Part shown: in pieces, positions 4,233 to 12,586 of the stretch
Layout of the letters: every line of letters starts with the position of its first letter
Numbering within the stretch: the first letter of the stretch is position 1
Source: a virus
Taxonomy: Duplodnaviria; Heunggongvirae; Uroviricota; Caudoviricetes
Virus record (IMG/VR): IMGVR_UViG_3300029473_000203
Strand: one strand, 5' to 3'
DNA: 37,224 nucleotides
Made by a program: the position numbers and the translations under genes
The notes under the pieces: generated by a model
Seen by the model: only the letters and a program-made list of their open reading frames with translations
The model's database searches: none
Told to the model about the DNA's origin: nothing

Positions 4233-5086
4233 GCACCATCCTGAAATGGGCGGGAAATAAAACCGCCATTATGTCCGAACTGAAAAAGCATCTTCCTGCT
4301 GGCCCGCGACTGGTTGAACCTTTCGCGGGTTCCTGTGCAGTGATGATGGAGACGGAGTACCCCAGCTATCTTGTTGCGGATATTAATCCTGATTTAATCA
4401 ACCTCTATAAAAAGGTTGCTGCTGATTGTGAATCGTTTATATCTCGCGCCAGAGTTTTATTTGAGATCGCAAACAGGGGGGTGGCTTATTACAACATAAG
4501 GCAGGAGTTTAATTACTCAACTGAAATTACTGATTTCATGAAAGCGGTATATTTCCTGTATCTCAATCGTCACGGTTACCGTGGTTTATGTCGCTATAAC
4601 AAGAGCGGGCATTTCAACATTCCCTACGGTAATTATAAAAATCCGTATTTCCCTGAAAAAGAAATTCGCGCATTTGCAGAAAAAGCCCAGCGAGCAACGT
4701 TTATCTGCGCCAGCTTTGATGAAACGCTGGCGATGTTGAAGGCGGGGGATGTGGTGTATTGCGATCCGCCGTATGACGGTACGTTTTCCGGCTATCACAC
4801 TGATGGTTTCACTGAAGATGACCAGTATCACCTGGCATCCGTTCTTGAACATCGGTCATCAGAAGGACATCCGGTCATTGTTTCTAACAGTGATACATCC
4901 CTGATCCGTTCGCTGTATCGCAATTTTACTCACCACTATATCAAGGTAAAACGCAGCATCGGTGTGGCAGCTGGCGAGGGTAAATCAGCAACAGAAATCA
5001 TTGCTGTTTCCGGGCCGCGCTGCTGGGTGGGATTTGATTATTCGCGTGGCGTGGATAGTTCTGCCGTGTACGGAGTACGTGCATGA
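4229..5086 (+). CDS. dam: DNA adenine methyltransferase (Dam family)
   Basis: N-terminal LKWAGNK...PFAGS (SAM-binding) and DPPY motif (CDPPYDG); start moved to ATG 4229 (MSTILKWAG) within ORF track 4169..5086; stop overlaps the repA start. Confidence 0.85.
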
Positions 5087-7497
5087 GCCATGCCGATATG
5101 AACAACTGCTGCGGCTTTAACGAGGCTGCCGCAGCGTTCTCATGGAACAGCCCGAAAAAGGCCATTAACCCTTATCTGGACCCGGCGGAAGTTGCGCCGG
5201 TTTCTGCGCTTTCAAACCTGATCGCTCTGTACGCTGCCGATAACGAGCAGGAACACCTGCGCCGCGAGGCACTGAGTGATCAGGTCTGGGAGCGTTATTT
5301 CTTTAATGAATCCCGTGATCCTGTCCAGCGCGAAATGGAGCAGGATAAGCTCATTAGTCGGGCAAAGCTGGCGCATGAGCAGCAGCGTTTTAATCCAGAT
5401 ATGGTCATTCTGGCGGACGTCAATGCCCAGCCTTCCCATATCAGCAAGCCGCTGATGCAACGTATTGAATACTTCAGCAGCTTGGGCAGGCCAAAGGCTT
5501 ATTCCCGCTATTTGCGTGAGACGATTAAGCCATGTTTGGAGCGACTGGAGCATGTACGCGACAGCCAGCTATCTGCATCTTTTCGTTTTATGGCAAGCCA
5601 TGTAGGGCTGGACGGCCTGCTGATTCTGCCTGAAATGAGTCAGGATCAGGTGAAACGCCTGTCTACTCTTGTCGCTGCGCATATGAGCATGTGTCTTGAT
5701 GCCGCTTGTGGTGATTTGTACGCCACCGATGATGTTAAGCCAGAAGAAATCCGCAAGACATGGGAAAAGGTGGCAGCAGAAACCCTGCGACTGGATGTTA
5801 TCCCGCCTGCGTTTGAGCAACTTCGTCGGAAAAGAAACCGCCGTAAACCCGTGCCCTATGAACTCATTCCGGGTTCGCTGGCGCGTATGTTGTGCGCCGA
5901 TTGGTGGTACCGGAAATTATGGAAGATGCGTTGCGAATGGCGGGAAGAGCAGTTGCGTGCTGTTTGCCTGGTCAGCAAAAAAGCATCTCCCTATGTCAGC
6001 TATGAAGCCGTGATGCATAAACGTGAGCAGCGCCGTAAGTCGCTGGAGTTTTTCCGTTCTCATGAACTGGTGAACGAAGACGGCGACACGCTGGACATGG
6101 AGGATGTGGTAAACGCCAGCAGCAGCAACCCGGCGCATCGCCGCAATGAGATGATGGCCTGTGTTAAAGGTCTGGAGCTTATCGCAGAAATGCGCAGTGA
6201 CTGTGCCGTTTTCTACACTATCACCTGTCCGTCGCGTTTCCATTCCACGCTCAATAACGGCAGACCAAACCCGACCTGGACAAACGCGACGGTAAGACAA
6301 AGCAGCGATTATCTGGTCGGCATGTTTGCTGCATTTCGTAAGGCTATGCACAAAGCCGGGTTGCGCTGGTATGGCGTGCGGGTGGCTGAACCGCATCATG
6401 ACGGCACAGTTCACTGGCACCTGTTGTGTTTCATGCGCAAAAAAGACCGCCGCGCCATTACTGCATTGTTGCGTAAGTTTGCCATCCGTGAAGACCGCGA
6501 GGAGCTGGGCAATAACACGGGGCCACGCTTTAAGTCTGAGCTGATAAACCCGCGCAAAGGTACGCCAACAAGCTACATCGCGAAATACATCAGTAAGAAC
6601 ATTGACGGGCGTGGTCTGGCTGGCGAGATCAGCAAGGAAACGGGTAAATCCCTGCGTGATAACGCTGAATACGTTAATGCCTGGGCGTCTCTGCATCGTG
6701 TTCAGCAATTCCGCTTCTTTGGCATTCCGGGGCGTCAGGCTTACCGTGAACTGCGATTGCTGGCTGGTCAGGCGGCAAGGCAACAGGGGGACAAAAAAGC
6801 AGGTGCGCCGGTACTGGATAACCCGCGCCTTGATGCAATCCTGGCTGCTGCTGATGCTGGTTGTTTTGCCACCTACATCATGAAGCAGGGCGGCGTACTG
6901 GTTCCCCGCAAATATCACCTCATCAGAACTGCTTATGAAATCAACGAAGAGCCGACCGCCTATGGCGATCACGGTATTCGTATTTATGGCATCTGGTCAC
7001 CCATTGCAGAGGGCAAGATCTGCACTCATGCGGTGAAGTGGAAAATGGTTCGTAAGGCCGTTGACGTTCAGGAGGCGGCAGCCGACCAGGGCGCTTGCGC
7101 CCCTTGGACTCGTGGCAATAACTGTCCCCTTGCTGAAAATTTGAACCAACAGGAGAAAGATAAATCAGCTGATGGGGACCCCAGAACGGACATTACCAGC
7201 ATGGATGACAAGGAGTTGCACGATTACCTGCACAGTATGAGCAAAAAAGAGCGCCGGGAACTGGCAGCAAGGTTACGCCTGGTGAAACCGAAACGGCGTA
7301 AAGACTACAAACAGCGAATTACAGACCATCAGCGACTGCAGCTCGTGTATGAGCTGAAGTCCAGAGGATTTGATGGCAGCGAGAAAGAGGTCGATTTACT
7401 CCTTCGCGGAGGCAGTATTCCGTCAGGAGCAGGCCTGCGTATCTTCTATCGGAACCAGCATTTGCAGGAAGATGATCAGTGGCGGAACCTGTATTAA
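5083..7497 (+). CDS. Replication initiation endonuclease (P2 gpA / 186 RepA-like, HUH rolling-circle)
   Basis: 804-aa ORF with HUH-like motif VHWHLLCF and tyrosine pair YIAKYISK; position after the early operon as in P2/186. Confidence 0.9.
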
Positions 7498-7589
7498 TTA
7501 CGCGGGTTAACAATTCGTGCTCTTAATAATACCAGACATATCAGGCTGATGAACGTAAAAAAACGTTTTACATCAGTAAGATTATTATA

Positions 7590-7609
7590 TACTGTAAATA
7601 TAAACAGTG
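7590..7609. promoter_or_regulatory. LexA operator (SOS box) upstream of the tum/DinI-like module
   Basis: TACTGTAAATATAAACAGTG matches consensus TACTG(TA)5CAGTA at 17 of 20 positions with correct CTG-N10-CAG spacing. Confidence 0.7.
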
Positions 7610-7650
7610 GTTATGCATACAGCATTGCGTGTGGTGTCATAGGAGGAAAG

Positions 7651-7839
7651 ATGCAGGACTATTTTTTGGAGTCTTTGAAGCTCCAGCGCATTGATTTTTT
7701 TCTTAAGCTTGTAGCGGCTAGTGAGTGTAGTGATGAAGAGAAGGGGCTGGCTCTGCAGTGGGTTTCTGAATTGACTGATGAACTCATGGCAAAAATCAGA
7801 ACCCACGAATACAACCGCTCAATGGATGTCATCAGCTGA
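7651..7839 (+). CDS. Small SOS-controlled protein (62 aa) of tum-like operon, possible antirepressor component
   Basis: ATG at 7651 preceded by AGGAGG, downstream of the LexA box; the upstream part of ORF track 7549..7839 would cover the operator and is rejected. Confidence 0.5.
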   Translation: MQDYFLESLKLQRIDFFLKLVAASECSDEEKGLALQWVSELTDELMAKIRTHEYNRSMDVIS

Positions 7840-7849
7840 GGTGACTTTT

Positions 7850-8083
7850 ATGCGCATTGAAATAATGATCGATAAAGAGCAGAAGATTAGCCAGTCTACC
7901 CTGGACGCCCTTGAATCCGAGCTTTACCGCAATCTGCGCCCCCTGTATCCCAAAACGGTAATTCGCATTCGCAAAGGTAGCTCTAACGGTGTGGAACTAA
8001 CCGGACTGCAACTGGACGAAGAAAGAAAACAAGTGATGAAAATTATGCAGAAGGTGTGGGAAGACGACAGCTGGCTGCATTAA
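7850..8083 (+). CDS. DinI-like protein (Tum C-terminal-domain-like)
   Basis: MRIEIMIDKEQ...LDALESELYRNL...VWEDDSWL resembles E. coli DinI as I recall it; ATG at 7850 within ORF track 7778..8083. Confidence 0.75.
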   Translation: MRIEIMIDKEQKISQSTLDALESELYRNLRPLYPKTVIRIRKGSSNGVELTGLQLDEERKQVMKIMQKVWEDDSWLH

Positions 8084-8088
8084 GAAAC

Positions 8089-8124
8089 GTTGCTGGCGTC
8101 AGTAATTAATTCTGACGCCAGCAC
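8089..8124. terminator. Inverted repeat between convergent operons (candidate bidirectional terminator)
   Basis: GTTGCTGGCGTCAG / loop TAATTAATT / CTGACGCCAGCAC; no strong T-tract. Confidence 0.4.
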
Positions 8125-8176
8125 GTTGAACAGCAATTAAGTCAAGGTGTTAGTTAAAAAACACCTTATAAGCCAT

Positions 8177-8860
8177 CTATGATTGAAGAGCAATCTTTCT
8201 CAACGTATCAAATACAATTTTTGTAAAATTATTTTCATTTTTAACGTCAATGTAAGCAAGAGCGTTATTAGTAATTTTAAGTTTACCAGAATACTCTAAT
8301 GAATTAACGGAGCAAACAAGTTTGTCAATTCTTATTTTCTTCCCCTCTAATTCTTCTTTATAATATTTTCTAAGGTCACTGCTGCCAATTATTTGCATTT
8401 TAGCTGTAGCGTAATCAGCGACTCTAACTCTAGAAATATCCAGCTGTGTTAGATTTATATTCACATTTGAAGATATTTCGTTGAGCCAATCCATCGGATT
8501 TATATCAATCTCTTCTAGGCTAACGCCTAAGCCAAGATTTCTGACTAAGGCCTGTGAAAACGGTTTTAACGTTCGCGGAGGGTTAGTAAGTTGCATTATA
8601 GGAAGAGTATCTAAAGATACACTGAAATTAGTAGTGCGGTATTCGACTCTTTCTACGATAGTTTCGCTTCCGTCAAAATTAGAAACTTGATCGTGATAAA
8701 TAATACGCTCAACAAAGCGTCCATGTGCAGAATCATGACGTATTTTATCAAAAATAAACCCTTTCCCCTTATCCTCGGTAAAAGAATCAAGAGAAAGACG
8801 TTTAACAGCTTTTTCAAATTCAAGCCGTATGTTTAATTTGAGCCACTTAACCTTCTTCAT
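8177..8860 (-). CDS. Cargo gene 3 of three-gene operon (227 aa, unknown function)
   Basis: Start overlaps the end of gene 2 by 14 nt; AT-rich by eye; no recognisable motif. Confidence 0.8.
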   Translation of the reverse strand: MKKVKWLKLNIRLEFEKAVKRLSLDSFTEDKGKGFIFDKIRHDSAHGRFVERIIYHDQVSNFDGSETIVERVEYRTTNFSVSLDTLPIMQLTNPPRTLKPFSQALVRNLGLGVSLEEIDINPMDWLNEISSNVNINLTQLDISRVRVADYATAKMQIIGSSDLRKYYKEELEGKKIRIDKLVCSVNSLEYSGKLKITNNALAYIDVKNENNFTKIVFDTLRKIALQS

Positions 8861-9926
8861 GTTCGTTTACCTCTGGTCCTATTATTATATTATAGGCATT
8901 TTCAGCGGCTGACTCAATTAATTCACTAATATGTCTTTTCTCTTGTGCCGTTGCCGCACGAATTGTCACATTGAATCCGTCTTCTTTTTGATTATTTATC
9001 CCTTTAATTTGATAGGCAAAGTCACAGCAATTTTCAGAGTCTTTGAAAAATGCTTCAACGTTAATTCTGTCACCAACTCCACTTGTCGGTTTTGAAGACC
9101 ATGCGATACGGCCTATATAATAACCTTTCTCGTGTAGTTGAGAAAATATAGGCGAACTATTAACACCTTCACCATTCAAAACAGCTTTCTTGACGAATCC
9201 GGTATCGATTGTTTCTTCTTTGTCTTCATCTTCACTTGCGTCAATACTGCGATTTAATTCTACTTTCGTTACATCATCAGTCTCATAACCATGTAGTCCA
9301 TTCATTAACTCTTGAAAGAACTGGCTTCGCAATGTAGGGTCAGTGATTGCCATTAAAGAAATTTCAAAACGTTCAATAGGCTCAGATTTGATTTTAGACA
9401 GCTCGTTTTGCAGACCCTCAATAACTTTTTTTGCCTCAGGATTCTGTGGCATACGTACTTCAACCTTGTCAACACCAGGGCGAAGTTCTATTATGACATT
9501 CCGTTTATCTATTTGACGCAGAGCGGTTTTAGATAAGTCTATTTCTTCATAGTTATATTCTACTGTCAGAGAACCATCTTTTTTCGCTACGATATTCAAG
9601 CTTTGCCCTTTACTGGGTGAACATGTTTTTTTCAATGCTTCAGCTGCGCTCTTTAATTCGGCCTGATTTGTTGTGGTCTGAAAACTCACACTGGTAATGC
9701 TTTCTCTTGGATCATATGTTTTGACCATCTTTTTTATATGCTCTAATTCATTAAAACCATGGGGGAGTTTTGATATTTCCTCGATAAGTATTTCCTTGTC
9801 GAGTTCTGGTGATAAAAAAACACCTCTATTTAGCAATAATTCATGTAATTTTGCAGGGGTTATTCTTTTATGATGCAAAGCATCATAAATATTCTTGTCA
9901 GTCGCAAAGTATAATTTTTTAGCCAT
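8847..9926 (-). CDS. Cargo gene 2 of three-gene operon (359 aa, unknown function)
   Basis: ATG overlaps gene 1 stop (TAATG on minus strand); acidic, Lys/Glu-rich; no Walker motif. Confidence 0.8.
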   Translation of the reverse strand: MAKKLYFATDKNIYDALHHKRITPAKLHELLLNRGVFLSPELDKEILIEEISKLPHGFNELEHIKKMVKTYDPRESITSVSFQTTTNQAELKSAAEALKKTCSPSKGQSLNIVAKKDGSLTVEYNYEEIDLSKTALRQIDKRNVIIELRPGVDKVEVRMPQNPEAKKVIEGLQNELSKIKSEPIERFEISLMAITDPTLRSQFFQELMNGLHGYETDDVTKVELNRSIDASEDEDKEETIDTGFVKKAVLNGEGVNSSPIFSQLHEKGYYIGRIAWSSKPTSGVGDRINVEAFFKDSENCCDFAYQIKGINNQKEDGFNVTIRAATAQEKRHISELIESAAENAYNIIIGPEVNEHEEG

Positions 9927-10927
9927 TATCGTTGCTCCATCCCAATTTTTTCAAGATTATATTCAACTACAACTTTGTCTGTCTTTTCGAAGTCAAATTT
10001 AAGAAAAAGTCTTTCATCCTCACCTAACAGCCAGTCTGTACTGTATTTCTTTTTAGCTTTTTCAAAATGATGAATAGCATTTTCATTTGGATGGATATGA
10101 CAATGACGTAATAAAATTGGTTTGCCTTCAGTGAGTATCTGATAAGTTGATAGCATGTCAAAAAAGTACACGAATTCATCTAATGAATCACCGGGTTGAT
10201 TGTAATAAACAACATACCCTTCTGGGATATCTTTTTTAAGCCAGCTAAAAGCCTCATGTTTAATTATGATGTATGGCGATGTTAATAATTCAATTGTCGC
10301 AGGTGTTGTTTGGTTGATGGGGTGTTTTATTCTTGTTAAAGAAAGATCTGGGTAATAGTAAGTAAACTTATCAGGCTGTGGAAGTTTTCCAGAGCCTATT
10401 AATTTGGTTATGTCAGAGGATATATTTATTAAATCAGATATTTTATAGGGGTCAAGTAAGTGTAGTTTTATGTTTGGAGGACAATTTATAACGGAATGAT
10501 CTAATTTTTTTGTAATATTTTCATAGAAATCTTTATCATATAGATTATCATGATTATACAAAAATAACAAACCTCTTACATTATAACCTAAAGAATCATC
10601 ATGAACGTATTTCAATCGCCACTCTTTACTTACATTCGCACACTCGGTAGCTAAAGCAAGTGAGGTTAAGGCACCTTCGACCATTTTTTTACCAATAGAT
10701 CCCTCCGCATAGCTCTTTAGATCTGTATTGAGATAGACCATTTCCTCTTCATAAGGGTCTGTGTAGAAAAATACAACATCACTTGGATGGGTTTTCTTGG
10801 AATGTACCTCTTGGCAACATTCCCAATTCATGTCCGCTCTAGCGGCGCGATCCCATTTGAATACAGAGAAAATATCATCAGAAATTTTACCTGCGACTCG
10901 TTGTATAGCCGAAGTTTCTCCACCCAT
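9926..10927 (-). CDS. Cargo gene 1 of three-gene operon (333 aa, unknown function; possible nuclease-like motifs)
   Basis: ATG at 10927 with AAGGAG RBS; tentative PD-(D/E)xK-like pattern (VVFFYTD ... MVYLNTDLK) and a His/Cys-rich patch RHCHIHPNENAIHH; no Walker A. Confidence 0.8.
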   Translation of the reverse strand: MGGETSAIQRVAGKISDDIFSVFKWDRAARADMNWECCQEVHSKKTHPSDVVFFYTDPYEEEMVYLNTDLKSYAEGSIGKKMVEGALTSLALATECANVSKEWRLKYVHDDSLGYNVRGLLFLYNHDNLYDKDFYENITKKLDHSVINCPPNIKLHLLDPYKISDLINISSDITKLIGSGKLPQPDKFTYYYPDLSLTRIKHPINQTTPATIELLTSPYIIIKHEAFSWLKKDIPEGYVVYYNQPGDSLDEFVYFFDMLSTYQILTEGKPILLRHCHIHPNENAIHHFEKAKKKYSTDWLLGEDERLFLKFDFEKTDKVVVEYNLEKIGMEQR

Positions 10928-11164: not shown

Positions 11165-11261
11165 CGCGCGCATTGAGTTAAAATTTCTTGAGTTGATGAA
11201 AATAAGATGTATTTTAATTTGGCACAGAAAAACCTAATAACTCACAAGGATAATGATAATA

Positions 11262-12188
11262 ATGCAAATAGTTTCCATCATAAATTATAAAGGTGGCGTT
11301 GGTAAAACAACAGTTACGTCTAATTTAGCCGCTGAATTAGCATTCCGAGGAAAGAATGTTTTAGTTCTGGATATGGATGCTCAGGCAAGCCTGACATTTT
11401 CGTTTCTAACTCCCGATTATTGGGATGAACATCTTAAAAATGAAAGGACCATTAAAAACTGGTTTGATTGTATTAGTCAGGGAGAGCAAACAATGCCTCT
11501 TTCGACTCTAAGAGTACGACCTGAACCTGTTAATAGTAGATTTGATAGAAAAGGTGGATGTTTGGATTTAATATCTTCCCACCTCGGGTTGATAAATGTT
11601 GATCTTGAGCTTGCGACTCTTCTAGGAGGGGCTAGCCCCAGTCAAACTCAAAAAAAATATCTTAAAGTTCATGGTAAACTTAGAGAGGAACTTCAAATAC
11701 TAGCTGACGAAATGAATTATGATGTTGTTTTAATTGATTGTCCACCTAACTTTAATATCGTAACAAAAAATGCTTTGATTGCATCAGATAAGATTTTGAT
11801 ACCAGCAAAACCTGATTATTTGTCAACGCTAGGTATTGATTATTTAAAAAGAAGCGTAGATTCTCTAGTTACAGACTATAATTTCTATGCCGATAAAGAT
11901 GAAGATTATGAAAGGGTATCTCCTGAGATTCTCGGAGTAGTTTTTACTATGATTCAAATTCATTCAGAACAACCTATTGCCGCGCAAAGACAGTATATTG
12001 CGCAGACAAAACGTCTAGGTGTTCCCGTATTTGATGCTATTTTTAGGGAGAATAAAACTATCTTTGCTGATGCCCCTAGAGATGGAATTCCTGTAGCATT
12101 AATTGGCTACTCGCATTCAACTCACTCTTCTATTGTAGGAGAGATTGAGGATTTTGTTGATGAATTCCTTCAAAAGATTGGAGAATAA
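11262..12188 (+). CDS. ParA/MinD-family P-loop ATPase
   Basis: Deviant Walker A KGGVGKTT near the N-terminus, VLVLDMDAQASLT, VVLIDCPPN; AT-rich; possible start at 11253 or 11262. Confidence 0.8.
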   Translation: MQIVSIINYKGGVGKTTVTSNLAAELAFRGKNVLVLDMDAQASLTFSFLTPDYWDEHLKNERTIKNWFDCISQGEQTMPLSTLRVRPEPVNSRFDRKGGCLDLISSHLGLINVDLELATLLGGASPSQTQKKYLKVHGKLREELQILADEMNYDVVLIDCPPNFNIVTKNALIASDKILIPAKPDYLSTLGIDYLKRSVDSLVTDYNFYADKDEDYERVSPEILGVVFTMIQIHSEQPIAAQRQYIAQTKRLGVPVFDAIFRENKTIFADAPRDGIPVALIGYSHSTHSSIVGEIEDFVDEFLQKIGE

Positions 12189-12190
12189 AA

Positions 12191-12586
12191 GTGAGTAAAG
12201 CTAAAACTTTAACTGTGCTATTTCGTGAATTACAAGATGCAGTTCTTGAACTCAATGAAGGGGAATTGGAAAAAATTATTTCGGGCGAGTATCAATTCGT
12301 CCTTAAGGTAGTTAAAAAACGTAATAGTACTGGTGCAAAGATAAGTTCAGTAGATAATTTTAGCTATAACGAATTGCTTGTTTTACTTAACCAGTGTGAG
12401 TCAAGAGAACAAGGTTGCGAGCTTTTGTCGCGTGAGCTTAAGACTAAATCTGAGTTTGAAAAATTCGCTCGTCATGTCGAGGTCGCTGTAATGAAAAGCG
12501 ATAAACTCGAGAAAATTAGAGATAATATTATTGAGTCGACAGTAGGTGCTAAACTCCGCTCTGATGCTATTCAGAATAAAAAGTAA
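12191..12586 (+). CDS. Small partner protein (131 aa) of the ParA-like ATPase, unknown function
   Basis: GTG start 2 nt after the ParA-like stop, with GGAGA upstream; charged, helical-looking sequence. Confidence 0.6.
   Translation: MSKAKTLTVLFRELQDAVLELNEGELEKIISGEYQFVLKVVKKRNSTGAKISSVDNFSYNELLVLLNQCESREQGCELLSRELKTKSEFEKFARHVEVAVMKSDKLEKIRDNIIESTVGAKLRSDAIQNKK

Follow-up and report, generated by a model that had tools for sequence, protein, structure and literature searches.

The window (the whole stretch of DNA analysed, 37,224 nucleotides) is a complete P2/186-like prophage in which the replication gene A ends the early operon. The gap of 153 nt between gene A and the next gene, ORF1, holds the LexA box TACTGTAAATATAAACAGTG at 7590–7609, and ORF1 is followed on the same strand by a second small gene, ORF2. 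The features of the module and its left neighbour are listed below.

5083–7497, + strand: replication gene A, left neighbour of the module (Pfam Phage_GPA, E = 6.8e-127)
7567–7572, + strand: −35 hexamer TTTACA of the putative SOS promoter, counterpart of 186 p95 (from the conservation footprint and the 186 layout)
7590–7595, + strand: putative −10 hexamer TACTGT, also the left arm of LexA box 1 (matches the annotated −10 of 186 p95)
7590–7609, no strand assigned: LexA box 1, TACTGTAAATATAAACAGTG, three mismatches to the 20 bp consensus TACTGTATATATATACAGTA (17/20)
7605–7624, no strand assigned: LexA box 2, CAGTGGTTATGCATACAGCA, degenerate, seven mismatches
7651–7839, + strand: ORF1, tumA-like, 62 residues, predicted antirepressor of the prophage CI (phrog_698; profile links to the N-terminal half of Tum)
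7850–8083, + strand: ORF2, tumB/DinI-like, 77 residues (Pfam DinI)
8086–8127, no strand assigned: strong hairpin between ORF2 and the convergent cargo genes (−27.3 and −26.3 kcal/mol for the + and − strands, z of roughly −6 to −7)

Box 1 is the sole site of its kind in the 37 kb window, and none was found in 100 shuffles; the looser core CTGT-N8-ACAG is by itself not significant (one found in the window versus 0.45 expected). Of 38 related genome loci, taken from one representative genome for each species of the collection that was scanned, nearly all have a box with at most five mismatches 20–77 nt 5′ of the start of ORF1. An initial annotation of this DNA had described a LexA box ahead of a 62-residue ORF and a DinI-like ORF, and all three were confirmed at the positions given for them (17/20 agreement for the box with no occurrence by chance, and a Pfam DinI match). 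The box described there is the first of two that overlap, with cores spanning 7592–7622; the second had been missed.

Box 1 covers the −10 hexamer, is non-random and is phylogenetically footprinted, as would be expected of a LexA operator. Among 41 sequences in which box 1 was located, the hexamer 17 nt 5′ of TACTGT is TTTACA in 26 and TTCACA in four more, and TACTGT itself is invariant in nearly all relatives. The 17 nt spacer between the two hexamers drifts freely in sequence, while an upstream A-rich tract and the downstream AGGAGG site persist. The −35 hexamer, the 17 nt spacing, the box and the Shine–Dalgarno sequence are conserved across Escherichia, Citrobacter, Klebsiella, Enterobacter, Pantoea, Erwinia and Tatumella. 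A generic promoter scanner called nothing at the operator, because TACTGT agrees with TATAAT at only three of six positions, and the promoter is assigned from the comparison with 186 p95 together with the conservation footprint. Since the box overlaps the −10 hexamer, bound LexA would occlude it.

The 16 bp core of box 2 (GTGG-N8-ACAG) follows directly after box 1, with G7607 common to both. The composite CTGT-N8-MCAGTGK-N8-ACAG has one match in the window versus none expected. Of the 38 related loci, 20 have the double box at the same position, as do Fels-2 and phage 813R9; a single box ∼40 nt 5′ of the start is present in 186, PSP3 and the Pantoea and Erwinia relatives. Two 16 bp LexA cores overlapping by one base at a promoter are the arrangement of the colicin-type double operator. 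In the colicin E1 gene (cea) of ColE1, CTGT-N8-MCAG is likewise followed by GTGG-N8-ACAG with one shared base (TGCTGTATATAAAACCAGTGGTTATATGTACAGTAT, compared with TACTGTAAATATAAACAGTGGTTATGCATACAGCAT in the window), and the double box ends ∼45 nt 5′ of the start codon. The two sequences are nearly the same, with three additional substitutions in box 2 of the window, and the ColE1 operator controls a plasmid toxin gene whereas that of the window would control a prophage switch. The colicin boxes have been described as binding two LexA dimers and thereby preventing untimely lethal expression (PMC2994835). Two LexA dimers most likely bind here as well, one to each overlapping box. Box 2 has three to six mismatches in the relatives compared with seven in the window, so that double occupancy in this particular prophage is uncertain.

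The ATG of ORF1 is preceded by AGGAGG at 7641–7646. ORF1 keeps exactly 62 codons in 33 of the 38 loci, with a median dN/dS of 0.07 at a dS of ∼1.1, which is near saturation; it is a real gene under strong purifying selection. Its matches in PHROG are phrog_698 (3.6e-38), phrog_8554 (2.4e-8) and phrog_1993 (2.2e-3), and the first 70 residues of 186 Tum match the same three profiles in the opposite order (phrog_1993, 2e-23; phrog_8554, 3.3e-12; phrog_698, 6.7e-6). Aligning the 49-sequence ORF1 family with the 33-sequence family of Tum N-terminal halves and TumA in hhalign gave an E value of 4e-4 at a probability of only 35%; the match is collinear over residues 4–42, with Cys26 and Ala-Leu 34–35 shared. 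The alignment of both ORFs to 186 Tum, proposed with the initial annotation, gave 41% identity for ORF2; for ORF1, BLASTP returned no alignment and the similarity showed only with profiles. The negative pairwise result marks the relationship of ORF1 to the N-terminal half of Tum as remote; given the profile links and the identical synteny, the homology is nevertheless well supported.

The AlphaFold2 model of ORF1 (mean pLDDT 90) is a helical hairpin formed by helices at residues 2–23 and 28–61. A Foldseek search of the PDB with this model returned nothing at E ≤ 0.001 and only generic helical hairpins, a sequence search of the PDB found nothing with ORF1 and only the DinI half with Tum (1ghh), and no Pfam or NCBIfam model matched in the family search. 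ORF1 has no experimentally characterised close homologue and is labelled ‘hypothetical protein’ in the RefSeq E. coli records listed. One source names it ‘levan regulatory protein’, which nothing here supports. Public protein collections also contain many versions of ORF1 with 84–109 residues. Starting at ATG 7549, a 96-residue form in the window would begin 5′ of the −35 hexamer and have the operator within its reading frame; a 101-residue form of ORF2 (7778–8083) is open, but the annotated genes of Fels-2 and 813R9 start where the Shine–Dalgarno sequences stand. These long forms are most likely to be gene-caller artefacts.

ORF2 has its own ribosome-binding site (GAGGTG, 7838–7843), which overlaps the stop codon of ORF1. 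It matches Pfam DinI (PF06183) with an E value of 6.6e-23 and 81 bits (cut-off 24), covers positions 71–148 of the 151-position profile phrog_189 and aligns with residues 71–145 of 186 Tum at 41% identity (E = 3e-24); compared with the C-terminal half of Tum it is 42% identical. Its start coincides exactly with the point at which the annotated DinI-like product of 186 is initiated from an internal GTG. Against the NCBIfam equivalog for chromosomal DinI (NF007893) it scores 42.7 bits, below the cut-off of 111, and is thus a Pfam DinI-family paralogue rather than an orthologue of host DinI. The LexA box and ORF1 occur without a DinI match in 14 of the 38 loci, and two more have a truncated or frame-disrupted DinI; the box and ORF1 are therefore the conserved core of the module. 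Non-polar dinI deletions left induction of the Gifsy prophages unchanged (PMC3121763). From this result, the loci that do without DinI and the frequency of stand-alone N-terminal halves, ORF2 is most likely to be a dispensable modulator.

Two further links between the genes were considered. A fused Tum made by programmed frameshifting finds no support, the open stretch of 24 codons in the ORF2 frame before 7850 being unremarkable by chance (∼0.3, an estimate). Structure-mediated translational coupling was likewise set aside, as the hairpin at 7828–7845 over the ORF2 ribosome-binding site is no better than in shuffled sequence (z = −1.2). Downstream of ORF2, the strong hairpin at 8086–8127 is probably the end of the two-gene operon, where it would act as a terminator; no canonical U-tract follows it on the + strand.

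The repressor that such a module would act upon is encoded on the opposite strand.

1449–2018, − strand: cI, 186-type immunity repressor, predicted target of ORF1 (Pfam Phage_CI_repr and Phage_CI_C)

The probable start of cI is GTG 2018, which has GGAGGA before it. The protein contains Phage_CI_repr (PF07022, 2.5e-31) and Phage_CI_C (PF16452, 3.4e-29) domains with only a sub-threshold trace of Peptidase_S24, and is 33% identical to the CI of 186 and 39% to that of Fels-2. This domain composition would fit a 186-type repressor that stays uncleaved on induction. Lacking a credible S24 protease domain, this CI would need an antirepressor for its inactivation rather than RecA-stimulated cleavage.

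Gene A, a LexA-controlled promoter, the N-terminal half of Tum and the DinI half follow one another in the window, 186, Fels-2 and PSP3 alike. The C-terminus of gpA lies 5′ of the ORF1 homologue in 34 of the 38 loci, in the same order as in those three phages, and the near-identical phage vB_EcoM-813R9 also has the order of the window: cI, cox, cII, fil, B, orf80, a zinc-finger gene, dam, A, the 62-residue ORF and an ‘SOS induction modulator’. This synteny can be read directly from the genomes, as can the sequence features, the degree to which these are conserved, and the homologies. Taken together, they make it probable (roughly 0.8) that a Fels-2/186-type P2-like prophage has its SOS induction operon here, in the split tumA–tumB form. 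The suggestion in the initial annotation of a tum-like function divided between two ORFs is supported on both sides, ORF2 corresponding to the C-terminal half of Tum and ORF1, through profiles, to the N-terminal half, in the same syntenic position.

The switch would operate as follows. In the lysogen, LexA would sit on the operator overlapping the −10 hexamer of the σ70 promoter (TTTACA-17 nt-TACTGT) and keep the operon silent. Upon DNA damage, activated RecA would promote the self-cleavage of LexA and both genes would be transcribed. ORF1, the 62-residue homologue of PSP3 TumA and of the Tum N-terminal half, modelled as a helical hairpin, is then predicted to bind the presumably non-cleavable 186-type CI and to block its binding to operators. 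With CI off its operators, the early lytic promoter would fire and the prophage would be induced. ORF2 stands alone as a DinI-like protein and corresponds to the short product that 186 tum yields from its internal start. Rather than trigger induction, it would probably act as a modulator of the RecA filament or of the SOS signal and thereby adjust how strong induction is or how long it lasts. The LexA binding, the antirepressor activity and the modulating role of ORF2 in this scheme are extrapolated from work on 186, PSP3 and Fels-2. In 186, SOS derepression of p95 leads to Tum, which sequesters CI and reversibly derepresses pR (PMC7708051). For PSP3, antirepressor activity has been reported for the upstream gene, on the basis of a personal communication cited second-hand (PMC3121763). 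Binding of CI so as to keep it off its operators, in a prophage inducible by SOS, is known only for 186 and reported for PSP3 and Fels-2 (PMC3121763). By this analogy, ORF1 is most likely the antirepressor.

Phage 186 resembles the window in having a LexA box over a TACTGT −10 hexamer, an antirepressor that acts on a 186-type CI (PMC7708051), as predicted for the window, and a DinI-like C-terminal half that is also made alone; this ‘truncated Tum’ from the internal GTG is annotated as ‘modulates SOS induction’. It differs in its fused 146-residue protein, single box and additional orf97 in the operon. The layout of its annotated p95, TTCACA-18 nt-TACTGT and a LexA site that begins at the −10 hexamer, matches the TTTACA-17 nt-TACTGT of the window. 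PSP3 shares the two-gene split: in GenBank its tumA is annotated as ‘similar to 5′ end 186 tum; UV induction of prophage’ and its tumB as DinI-like. PSP3 TumB is 78% identical to ORF2, whereas identity between TumA and ORF1 is only 22%, TumA having aligned with the 186-type set instead of the ORF1 set. In PSP3, tumA and tumB share a frame, with a stop codon and one codon between them; in the window, 10 nt separate the two ORFs and their frames differ. Where the window has two overlapping LexA boxes, PSP3 has one.

Fels-2 is the closest match. STM2728.Fels2 is 98.4% identical to ORF1 and STM2726.1.Fels2 is 100% identical to ORF2, both in the same place after gene A, and the promoter region is the same as that of the window, including box 1. 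Its box 2 has five mismatches, compared with seven in the window, and is letter for letter that of ColE1. Fels-2 and 186 both have a 243-residue gene downstream on the same strand (in Fels-2, of the length of 186 orf97), whereas the SOS operon of the window has two genes only and probably ends at the hairpin facing the defence island. The LexA-repressed dinI–gfoA/gftA operons of Gifsy prophages 1, 2 and 3 also combine a homologue of DinI with a small antirepressor directed at a repressor that is not cleavable, but they belong to lambdoid phages and have the reverse order, with dinI first (PMC3121763).

Judged by these identities, the module of the window is the Fels-2 module, an arrangement that was already known. 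The split of tum into two genes in Fels-2 and PSP3 was noted by Lemire et al. (2011; PMC3121763), who cited Bunny et al. (2002) together with a personal communication of G. E. Christie, and it also stands in the PSP3 tumA/tumB annotation; the novelty of the split architecture implied by the initial annotation was therefore not borne out. The colicin-like double operator and the constancy of TumA across CI types are modest additions. No mention of either was found in the literature searched, a scope outside which Bunny et al. (2002) lies, and a search for TumA/TumB returned unrelated papers only.

The constancy of TumA is apparent in phages with an ORF1 98–100% identical to that of the window. 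Their CI proteins are 57% (813R9), 50% (Kp4860-7), 43.5% (Kp4846-2, Cartapus and RE2010), 40% (Kp4865-2) and 39% (Fels-2) identical to the CI of the window. Splitting five of the CI alignments by domain gave 71–82% identity for the N-terminal DNA-binding domain and 23–41% for the linker and C-terminal region. The N-terminal domain of 186 CI is 41% identical to that of the window, and the N-terminal half of 186 Tum is remote from ORF1. Either ORF1 is broad-spectrum or some of these pairings are non-functional. A near-constant ORF1 beside diverse CI proteins would fit an antirepressor that docks on the conserved DNA-binding domain of CI, a speculative reading of a handful of sequences. Its extension is tentative, more a conjecture than an expectation: TumA may be broad-spectrum by way of the CI helix-turn-helix domain and cross-induce heteroimmune co-resident Fels-2-like prophages, with a colicin-style double LexA lock making induction late and all-or-none. 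Antirepressor cross-talk between prophages has been shown for Gifsy (PMC3121763).

The same pairing of identical ORF1 proteins with very different CI repressors could be expected if the operon were an SOS-induced accessory unit, tuning host mutagenesis through DinI or acting through ORF1 on a host protein, with the prophage induced by another route. Such a role is allowed by the lack of a characterised close homologue or curated family for ORF1 and would suit an operon at the edge of a low-GC cargo island. We nonetheless regard it as unlikely. The module always adjoins gene A, part of the conserved backbone, and does not lie within the variable island; ORF1 is homologous to the N-terminal half of Tum; and pattern searches of the window found no other LexA box able to couple the SOS response to induction.

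It is very unlikely that the DinI-like ORF2 is itself the inducing factor, for example through RecA filaments, with ORF1 a small SOS protein that is accessory or unrelated. No part other than the DinI-like half has a curated family, and this half is the better conserved between the window and 186 (42% identity versus ∼20% for the N-terminal half), but the box and ORF1 are kept in the loci with no DinI match or a disrupted one, and CI has no credible autocleavage domain on which RecA could act. The short DinI-like products of 186 are annotated as modulators only, and neither the Gifsy dinI deletions, with no effect on induction, nor the antirepressor activity reported for the upstream gene of PSP3 (PMC3121763) fits such a trigger.

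A 186-like fused tum broken by a stop or frameshift, leaving the prophage no longer inducible, would account for two ORFs in different frames 10 nt apart where 186 has a single 146-residue Tum, but is scarcely credible given a Shine–Dalgarno sequence for each ORF, the constant length and low dN/dS of ORF1 at near-saturated dS, the conservation of the two-ORF arrangement from Escherichia to Pantoea and Erwinia, the frequent occurrence of stand-alone proteins of 63–78 residues in close relatives of the 186 Tum N-terminal half as well, and a Salmonella lexA null reported as lethal because of Fels-2, a carrier of the same module, in the title of Bunny et al. (2002).

We return to the split tumA–tumB operon and its distribution. 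None of the best 120 matches to the N-terminal half of 186 Tum is full length: most have 63–92 residues, and the few DinI-bearing proteins among them are fragments on short contigs or partial records. Proteins 74–96% identical to the 186 Tum N-terminal half are mostly stand-alone, with 63–92 residues, and end before the DinI part. Since stand-alone N-terminal halves predominate even among these close relatives of the 186 Tum N-terminal half, split and fused forms alternate within one clade and are evidently interchangeable; the textbook fused form of 186 does not look to be the commoner one.

A stretch at least 80% identical to 7540–8130 is present in 1,125 of 5,426 complete E. coli genomes, and the module is also found in dozens of Klebsiella and Salmonella phage records. 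With a near-identical stretch in about one-fifth of complete E. coli genomes, the module is real but ordinary. It would set when a very common enterobacterial prophage family leaves lysogeny and, being so common, would affect phage release under DNA-damaging antibiotics. The understanding of how these phages are induced is unchanged; the value of the assignment is for annotation, as ORF1, most likely the antirepressor, is without a model in Pfam or NCBIfam.

Beyond the operon, GC content falls from ∼53% to ∼35% between roughly 8.1 and 12.6 kb. This low-GC stretch lies between the tum module and the genes annotated as portal and terminase in 813R9, and contains the following genes.

8177–10927, − strand: three low-GC genes of 227, 359 and 333 residues (PADLOC Hp3, Hp2 and Hp1, full length, E = 5e-144 to 1.5e-245)
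11253–12586, + strand: ParA/MinD-like P-loop ATPase (Pfam AAA_31, 7.6e-36; weak PADLOC PDC-M28B match), then a 131-residue ORF of no assigned family

The genes matching Hp3, Hp2 and Hp1 are convergent to the tum operon; we take these PADLOC models to be those of the three-hypothetical-protein anti-phage system of the P2 variable hotspot. The ATPase and the 131-residue ORF may constitute another defence system or a partition-like accessory system.
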